DNA of 31,156 bases from a virus. Lineage: Duplodnaviria > Heunggongvirae > Uroviricota > Caudoviricetes. Of this stretch, positions 6,471-6,574 are shown in pieces. The DNA lies in the IMG/VR virus record IMGVR_UViG_2778261417_000015, positions 1 through 31,156 of that record. The stretch is one strand, 5' to 3'. Position numbers and translations under genes: made by a program. Below the pieces are notes generated by a model. That model was not told where the DNA came from and ran no database searches. It was given only the letters and a program-made list of their open reading frames with translations. Position 1 is the first letter of the stretch; each line of letters starts with the position of its first letter.

Positions 6471-6574
6471 AATCTTCTCCGCGCTTAAGGCCGCGCCGCC
6501 GAACGTTTAAACCCAATCCCCAGCAGGGGTTGCTATATCGGAGCAAACTCTGTGAATTTGCTTTGATATGGCGA

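Follow-up and report, generated by a model that had tools for sequence, protein, structure and literature searches.

Matched core sequences in the leaders of two divergent early operons of lambdoid (pro)phages, and a possible role in pairing between leader RNAs

Genomic context of the repeat

The DNA analysed here, referred to throughout as the window, is a stretch of 31,156 nt that covers the early region of a lambdoid (pro)phage, followed by late genes. It contains two exact copies of the 15-mer AACCCAATCCCCAGC, located at 6510–6524 (copy A) and 14749–14763 (copy B), both on the plus strand and about 8 kb apart, and no further copy was found in the window on either strand when up to two mismatches were allowed. 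The original prediction that the same 15-mer occurs at two sites is thus confirmed as an exact pair, except that the first copy had been placed one base too low, at 6509–6523. Both copies had also been described as intergenic, and this is indeed the case: copy A lies between a terminator and a gene for an 87-aa protein, and copy B lies between a 161-aa gene and an open reading frame (ORF) of 33 codons. The change in base composition that was thought to accompany the copies is evident at B, where the GC content is 0.41–0.47 upstream and 0.54–0.59 downstream, but it is only mild at A. A second short string, GCCATAATCT, is located to the left of each copy (p about 0.01).

As a whole-window statistic, the 15-mer repeat is not significant. 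After masking of a 9-bp tandem array, exact direct repeats of at least 15 nt were present in 33% of 200 dinucleotide-preserving shuffles of the window, and exact repeats of at least 15 nt in either orientation were present in 66% of 200 shuffles. The expected count of 0.03 refers to a pre-specified 15-nt word and not to any repeat in the window. The window sequence alone cannot show that the pair is non-random, and its status as such is based on the comparative data presented below.

The leader at site A

Copy A is situated in the early-left part of the window, in the leader of the second of the following genes:

6922–6596, minus strand: first leftward gene, 108 aa, which precedes the tL1-like terminator
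6597–6574, minus strand: tL1-like intrinsic terminator, with core A downstream of it
6525–6572, minus strand: T1-specific remainder of block A, with predicted hairpins on the leftward RNA
6510–6524, plus strand: core copy A, type T1, kept in five other loci (L006, L020, L029, L263, L270)
6499–6504, plus strand: module CCGAAC, 5 nt before core A, the counterpart of the loop CCUGAAC at site B
6465–6509, minus strand: conserved leader with Shine–Dalgarno (SD) sequence GGAG (6480–6477) and start codon ATG (6470–6468)
6207–6470, minus strand: 87-aa gene (DUF7446, phrog_1578), the leader of which carries copy A
6210–6058, minus strand: kil, which follows the DUF7446 gene

On the leftward (minus-strand) transcript core A reads GCUGGGGAUUGGGUU and is located 39–53 nt before the start codon of the 87-aa gene. 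In every class of A sites, the site is located within the 5' leader of the first leftward gene past the terminator or terminators. The segment at 6465–6509 is nearly invariant across the core types defined below, though the gene behind it differs, and an alignment of the A sites consists of a nearly invariant left part of 42 nt, a hypervariable core and a right-hand hairpin that is common to all types except T1. The sequence (C/G)(C/T)GAAC(A/G) is present in every class, 5–10 nt before the core, with the variants CCGAAC, GGAAC(G/A), CAGAAC and GCTGAACA. Right after the 15-mer in the window, at 6526–6533 on the plus strand, block A contains GGGGTTGC; of the T3 core GGGGTTGCGC, which has 10 nt, 8 nt are thus present, and this suggests that the T1 block at A was derived from a T3-like block by insertion of a new core.

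The promoter scan identified no sigma-70-like promoter on the plus strand upstream of site A in the window, and site A is therefore most simply regarded as part of the leftward transcript. There is no hairpin-1 stem (see below) at A, and the complement of the core on the leftward RNA, hereafter the anti-core, is partly paired in the predicted folds, such that its accessibility is only partial. We also considered a rightward promoter at A that would use CATAAT at 6468–6473 and rejected it; no acceptable −35 hexamer was found, and CATAAT consists of the start codon and spacer of the leftward gene.

A separate observation concerns the leftward strand of HK639 at 33104–33139 (L084 1105–1140) and of most T2 and T3 A sites, which reads AUGACAACCGGCGGCCAUCCACCGCC and would encode MTTGGHPPP... 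The hairpin is conserved and annotated as a terminator in HK639, and could also be a polyproline mini-ORF. It is missing from the T1 block of the window.

The leader at site B

In the rightward direction, the order in the window is ren, a low-GC island, a theta-subunit-like gene, the 161-aa gene, which ends at 14700, and copy B, with the following features:

12206–12550, plus strand: ren
14697–14725, plus strand: promoter-like site from the promoter scan, TTGATT, 17 nt, CATAAT
14697–14714, plus strand: palindrome TTGATTTtctgAAATCAA, overlapping the −35 hexamer and the stop codon of the upstream gene
14732–14748, plus strand: predicted hairpin 1, consisting of GUGG, the loop CCUGAACAA (14736–14744, with the YUNR sequence CUGA inside) and CCAC
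14749–14763, plus strand: core copy B, type T1, covering the unpaired linker after hairpin 1 and CAGC, the first 4 nt of the hairpin-2 5' arm
14760–14791, plus strand: predicted hairpin 2, with SD sequence GAGGA (14772–14776) in or near the apical region and AUG (14783–14785) in the 3' arm
14783–14884, plus strand: 33-codon ORF MALYEVTIRPLSQMLSGTCDFLHSAFDLCGGEA, the stop codon of which overlaps the ninB GTG (GTGA)
14881–15330, plus strand: ninB/orf recombination mediator (PF05772)

The TTGATT-17-CATAAT site is the sole match of the promoter scan on the plus strand between 6000 and 15500. The TGAT-N8-ATCA element over its −35 hexamer is kept in all relatives examined, including the DLP12 prophage of E. 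coli K-12, and the palindrome looks like a putative operator for a dimeric regulator. FNR and Fur were set aside as identities for it, since its spacing would not agree with the consensus of either.

The predicted hairpin 1 is supported by covariation. Among 26 distinct sequences, 87.7% of the cells in the stem are paired, versus 60.7% in shuffles and 28–54% with slid partners, and changes on both sides were observed in 9 of the 10 pairs. The 9-nt loop, CCUGAACA(A/C), is almost invariant and was unpaired in 65 of 68 predicted leader folds. Hairpin 2 was recovered by RNAalifold, with compensatory changes in five of nine pairs, and in 40 of the 68 predicted B-leader folds the start codon is entirely base-paired; some T2 and T3 B sites have an identical hairpin 2. 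The core at B starts at or just past the 3' arm of hairpin 1, 6–10 nt after the loop sequence CCUGAAC, and enters the first 4–5 nt of hairpin 2.

The 33-codon ORF is absent from the ORF list for the window, which had a cut-off of 40 aa. Phage 82 has an equivalent that is annotated as "orf33," and in E. coli K-12 DLP12 a 33-aa ORF takes its place ahead of ybcN; searches of Pfam and NCBIfam assigned the ORF to no family. Two of the IMG/VR loci (L100 and L136) carry two B-type leaders 1.9–2.5 kb apart, each with a T2 core.

Distribution in related genomes

A scan of IMG/VR for the 15-mer yielded 83 loci, most of which are chance matches, and three contigs contained it twice or in the right context. 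In a scan of one genome per species, Pseudocitrobacter vendiensis (CPO20170097T) and Enterobacteriaceae bacterium G50 each had the 15-mer once per site, and elsewhere it was found as singletons only, in unrelated phyla. The T1 pair is thereby kept in six mosaically distinct (pro)phages, the window included. The homology of these relatives to the window is limited to short blocks, at about 6501–6597 and 14697–14885, and the flanking genes and the intervening 8 kb are mostly different among the T1 genomes. Block A of the T1 type was unmatched in the phage collection and in the complete E. coli genomes, such that its relatives come solely from IMG/VR and the two enterobacterial genomes. In the phages HK639 and CobraSix, similarity to the window extends to the left edge of copy A (6465–6512) and is also present around the end of orf33.

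The original prediction had proposed that the 15-mer is either a regulatory site or a junction sequence, to be sought at comparable positions in relatives. Our search found it conserved at both positions, and the finding that relatives keep it at exactly these two places, inside conserved leader elements, supports the regulatory alternative.

Of 5426 complete E. coli genomes, 2779 carry the B leader, which is also present in the defective DLP12 prophage, and only 27 carry A-type blocks. Since B is intact without A in most E. coli genomes, it does not require A. The DLP12 prophage of E. coli K-12 contains a complete T2-type B leader in the gap between ybcM and ybcN (L297 1505–1690), preceding the 33-aa ORF, which is ylcH-like, and ybcN. 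The palindrome, CATAAT, hairpin 1, GACTTCTGCGC and hairpin 2 are all present in this leader, which is unannotated.

Core types are matched within genomes and switched between lineages

With anchors that were free of the motif, IMG/VR provided over 120 sites for B and 48 for A, to which targeted scans were added. Five core types could be distinguished, for which the A and B sites of one genome are alike and the lineages differ:

T1: AACCCAATCCCCAGC at A and B, in 6 genomes
T2: GACTTCTGCGC at A and B, in HK639, CobraSix and over 20 loci of IMG/VR; the left flank at A exists in three versions
T3: (A)TGGGGTTGCGC at A and B, in 4 genomes
T4: ACCTCGCACC at A and ACCTCGCGCC at B, a single difference, in 1 genome
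T5: (A)ACCTGTGCGC at A and B, in 3 genomes

The swapped core is 7–15 nt long and has been exchanged at both sites together, between conserved flanks. Because the flanks at A are nearly invariant across the types, only the core has been swapped, a pattern that fits a specificity determinant and not a linker that the two sites happen to share. In the complete genome of HK639, its core occurs exactly twice, both times on the plus strand.

At least 10 nt are common to A and B in 37 of 59 candidate pairs, for which A was defined loosely and independently of the motif; many of the other pairs involve false A candidates. When A and B sites of different types were combined, more than 8 nt were shared in none of 1548 pairings; both counts include related genomes and are not made up of independent samples. 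The T5 type provided a prospective test, in which the B core was predicted from the A core of one contig (L213) and a scan was made for the predicted core after the hairpin-1 loop; it was found on the same contig (L309). The single difference between A and B in T4 is a transition that would give a G.U pair in an RNA duplex, and although this is one case only, it is what would be expected if RNA pairing, and not identity of the DNA, were under selection.

The matching is not complete. In five loci (L099, L119, L133, L148 and L162), the A core GACTTCAACGC stands opposite GACTTCTGCGC at B, or opposite GACTTCTTCGC in L133, with one or two central mismatches. This class could represent decayed pairs or escape variants, or could mean that matching is not always required. 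Furthermore, no matching B site was found for the A core AGCTTCCACGC (L227 and L247), no partner for the B core ATCCATGCGTC of L103, and no recognisable partner in L176.

A model of leader-to-leader RNA pairing

Taken together, these patterns make it very probable that the two sites are functionally coupled. Since the copies are located on one DNA strand and the operons are divergent, the two modules of the rightward leader both have their complement in the leftward RNA, with the layout 5'-anti-core-spacer-GUUC(G/A)G-3'. We hypothesize that the leftward leader and the B leader pair in trans, a specific mechanism that we consider about as likely as not on comparative and thermodynamic grounds. 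According to this model, pairing would start between the YUNR loop of hairpin 1 (CUGA) and GUUC(G/A)G, and the anti-core would form 11–15 bp with the unpaired linker and the base of hairpin 2. The core would then serve as an interchangeable cassette that determines specificity.

Site A would be transcribed only after read-through of tL1, and pairing could potentially couple the expression of orf33-ninB to read-through in the early-left operon (kil, gam/recombination genes), or provide the reverse coupling. The outcome might be an altered initiation of orf33, and hence of the overlapping ninB, a new processing site, or an action on the leftward gene. A simple mechanism in which the start codon is opened is not assured, because the core covers only 4–5 bp of hairpin 2. 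The comparative data show the anatomy of the two leaders, the hairpins, and a core that matches within genomes and switches between lineages; that both RNAs are made and pair, as well as the direction and sign of the regulation, is what we infer.

The cognate duplexes, computed from 18-nt windows, have energies of −31.4 (T1), −22.2 (T2) and −26.2 (T3) kcal/mol, and most non-cognate duplexes fall around −15 to −19 kcal/mol; some non-cognate energies are nearly as low as the cognate ones, which we attribute to GC-rich neighbouring sequence and to the T3-like GGGGTTGC in the T1 block at A. Long-range predictions with duplexfold (120 × 85 nt) gave only uninformative zipper structures. The mismatched and unpartnered cores, the B leaders that exist without an A block and the partial pairing of the anti-core all speak against the model. 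YUNR sequences are typical of antisense recognition loops. Two hallmarks of antisense–target pairs can be recognized here: complementary, covarying segments are present, except in the five loci with one or two central mismatches, and in the predicted folds an accessible, structured recognition element is seen at B, whereas the accessibility on the leftward RNA is only partial.

A more general version of the model is that the early-left and early-right operons of lambdoid phages are coupled by mRNA–mRNA leader pairing, through a universal kissing module, CUGAAC/GUUCAG, plus a cassette of 7–15 nt. We put this forward as a tentative idea that is rather less likely than not.

Alternative explanations

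One alternative to leader-to-leader pairing is that site A is transcribed rightward, antisense to the left operon, and that both RNAs bind a common factor in trans, be it a protein or a small RNA, with A serving as a decoy or second target. The same order, similar spacing and same strand of the modules at the two sites would be accounted for, and in T2 and T3 the core on the plus strand is followed by the hairpin GGCGGTGGATGGCCGCC and then GGTTGT, which could end a short rightward RNA. We nevertheless consider it unlikely, given that the window has no promoter-like site on the plus strand upstream of A, that the stem of hairpin 1 is missing at A, and that neither the window nor the complete HK639 genome contains a third, complementary copy of the core.

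Another possibility is that the sites act as DNA, such that a type-specific DNA-binding protein, or a recombination or junction function, recognizes one asymmetric site at both places. The direct copies would then mark the borders of the immunity and replication segment for modular exchange or site-specific recombination, which is akin to the junction sequence for modular exchange of the original prediction. What is actually observed is identity at the level of DNA, the copies are direct repeats on one strand, about 6–9 kb apart, that bracket the immunity and replication genes, and the blocks that carry them (about 6501–6572 and 14697–14885) are bounded by mosaic breakpoints on their flanks. 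Within these blocks, however, the 15-mer is replaced by other cores between unchanged flanks: the A sites of T2, T3, T5 and others have both flanks in common and are distinguished by the core alone, which is not how a junction would appear if one flank travelled with the cassette. For the 15-mer itself, a junction role thus finds no support, also in view of its exact position between two RNA hairpins at B. Moreover, (C/U)GAAC at B coincides precisely with the loop of a hairpin that has a covarying stem, which indicates selection at the RNA level, the difference in T4 is a transition that preserves a G.U pair, and no candidate protein or recombinase gene that varies with the core was found next to either site. 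We therefore regard an explanation at the DNA level as quite improbable.

We assign a very low probability to the idea that the two leaders are non-functional paralogues, derived from one ancestral segment and occasionally homogenized by recombination, with no selection for matching. The second shared string, GCCATAATCT, speaks for such an origin, as does the intensive recombination of lambdoid phages. Yet the core has been switched at both sites at least four times independently, with unchanged flanks, gene conversion of 7–15 nt is implausible where A and B have no flanking homology, and the matching persists across genomes in which the intervening 8 kb is unrelated. Finally, a chance coincidence of the 15-mer, for all that a third (33%) of the shuffled windows hold a direct repeat of this length, can be practically dismissed, since five further mosaic (pro)phages have the same pair, the other four cores show the same behaviour at the same positions and the prospective prediction was confirmed.

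Comparison with known regulatory systems

Several established elements were considered as identities for the repeat and rejected. An att-like core does not agree with the conservation of both A flanks across the core types, and no recombinase gene is located beside either site. On the rightward RNA, a richness in C as in a rut site is seen for the T1 core but not for the cores of T2 (GACUUCUGCGC), T3 (GGGGUUGCGC) and T5 (ACCUGUGCGC), and this reading was abandoned for that reason. Nor do the copies represent a nut (boxA/boxB) site: they are oppositely oriented in the two transcripts and located after tL1 and before ninB, and boxA-like sequences are found elsewhere. Rfam gave no match at the gathering score at A or B, only weak, terminator-driven matches (E >= 0.076), among them isrK (E 0.076) at 6576–6636, which covers the terminator.

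Trans-acting leader regulation by antisense RNA is known from phages P1 and P7, in which the c4 RNA acts on the icd-ant leader, and from phage P4, with its CI RNA and the seqA, seqB and seqC sequences. These regulators are small RNAs processed from the operon of their own target, and they control immunity or antirepressor genes. The mechanism proposed here would resemble them in the pairing of leaders in trans by two short modules and in a phage specificity that arises from co-changing bases. It would differ in that the partners would be the leaders of two divergent lambdoid early operons, and in the genes downstream, which are orf33-ninB and the DUF7446 gene.

The hok/sok, CopA/CopT and RNA-IN/RNA-OUT systems are YUNR-loop antisense systems that are encoded in cis on opposite strands and are fully complementary. 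A loop next to a single-stranded stretch is a layout for fast loop-to-linear pairing, followed by extension of the helix, and the conserved loop with CUGA in CCUGAACAA beside the predicted single-stranded linker is reminiscent of this layout. Unlike in those systems, the loci in the window are about 8 kb apart and have just two short complementary modules. In DsrA/RprA–rpoS, translation is activated by hairpin invasion with an Hfq-dependent small RNA. The core similarly covers an unpaired toehold and the base of a predicted start-codon hairpin, but extends over only 4–5 bp of hairpin 2, and the putative regulator is an mRNA leader.

The arrangement of paired sites, one in each early operon and with a specificity that depends on the phage type, is also found in lambda nutL/nutR and in putL/putR of HK022 and HK639. 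The nut and put sites are close to the promoter and share one orientation with respect to transcription, so that on the DNA they are inverted, whereas sites A and B form direct copies on the DNA, would give complementary RNAs and are distant from the promoters. HK639 uses put RNA and also carries the A/B pair. The window has nut-like sites of its own, which differ from the A/B motif in both sequence and place:

9032–9079, plus strand: nut-like site after cro, with boxA-like CGCTCTTTAACAA (9032–9044), then the hairpin GGCTGAGTAATCAGCC (9064–9079)
7187–7159, minus strand: leftward nut-like site, with the hairpin GGCGGATACCCCGCC (7187–7173), then TGCTTCTTTAACAA (7172–7159)

Implications for lambdoid phages

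The lambda-like phages are among the best-studied regulatory systems, yet the link between A and B is apparently undescribed. A limited literature check yielded no description of a sequence link between the region past tL1 and the leader of the nin region, nothing relevant was found on ninB together with small RNAs, on HK639, ylcH or ybcN, or on antisense regulation in lambdoid phages, and the A and B sites are unmarked in the annotations of HK639 and K-12.

If the pairing is real, it would constitute an RNA-level link between the operon with kil, gam and the recombination genes and the NinB/Orf recombination mediator, and it would show that short specificity cassettes can be swapped at two loci together in highly mosaic genomes. 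In the more general version of the model, the core types would be "pairing types," analogous to immunity types, and an induced or infecting phage might act on the orf33-ninB or ybcN leaders of any resident prophage that shares its type, DLP12 of E. coli K-12 among them. This prophage, HK639 and CobraSix all carry the T2 core and are tractable systems in this respect. There would also be a gain for annotation, in that a B leader could be marked in about half of the complete E. coli genomes.

Other repeats and RNAs in the window

Several additional repeats and a candidate RNA were noted. The segment at 16803–16875 on the plus strand, right after a Q-like gene at 16098–16787, matches the Rfam family isrJ (RF01393) with 69.9 bits, as compared to a gathering score of 37, and the isrJ-like RNA probably represents a short, terminated transcript from the late promoter of this phage. 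A direct repeat of 28 nt with 96% identity between its copies, the terminator-like GAGCCTCGCCATCGTGC(G/A)GGGCTTTTTT, is located at 16851–16878 and 18514–18541 on the plus strand; the isrJ-like RNA ends with the first copy, and the second follows the lysis genes. The hairpin of the tL1 terminator, AAAACCCGCCGGAGCGGGT (6578–6596), has a perfect inverted copy of 19 nt at 29641–29659 in the late region, where the terminator appears to have been reused in the opposite orientation. The 9-bp tandem array consists of about seven copies of GCAGAGCAG at 27693–27764 on the plus strand and forms an in-frame repeat of three residues in the ORF at 27513–27791.
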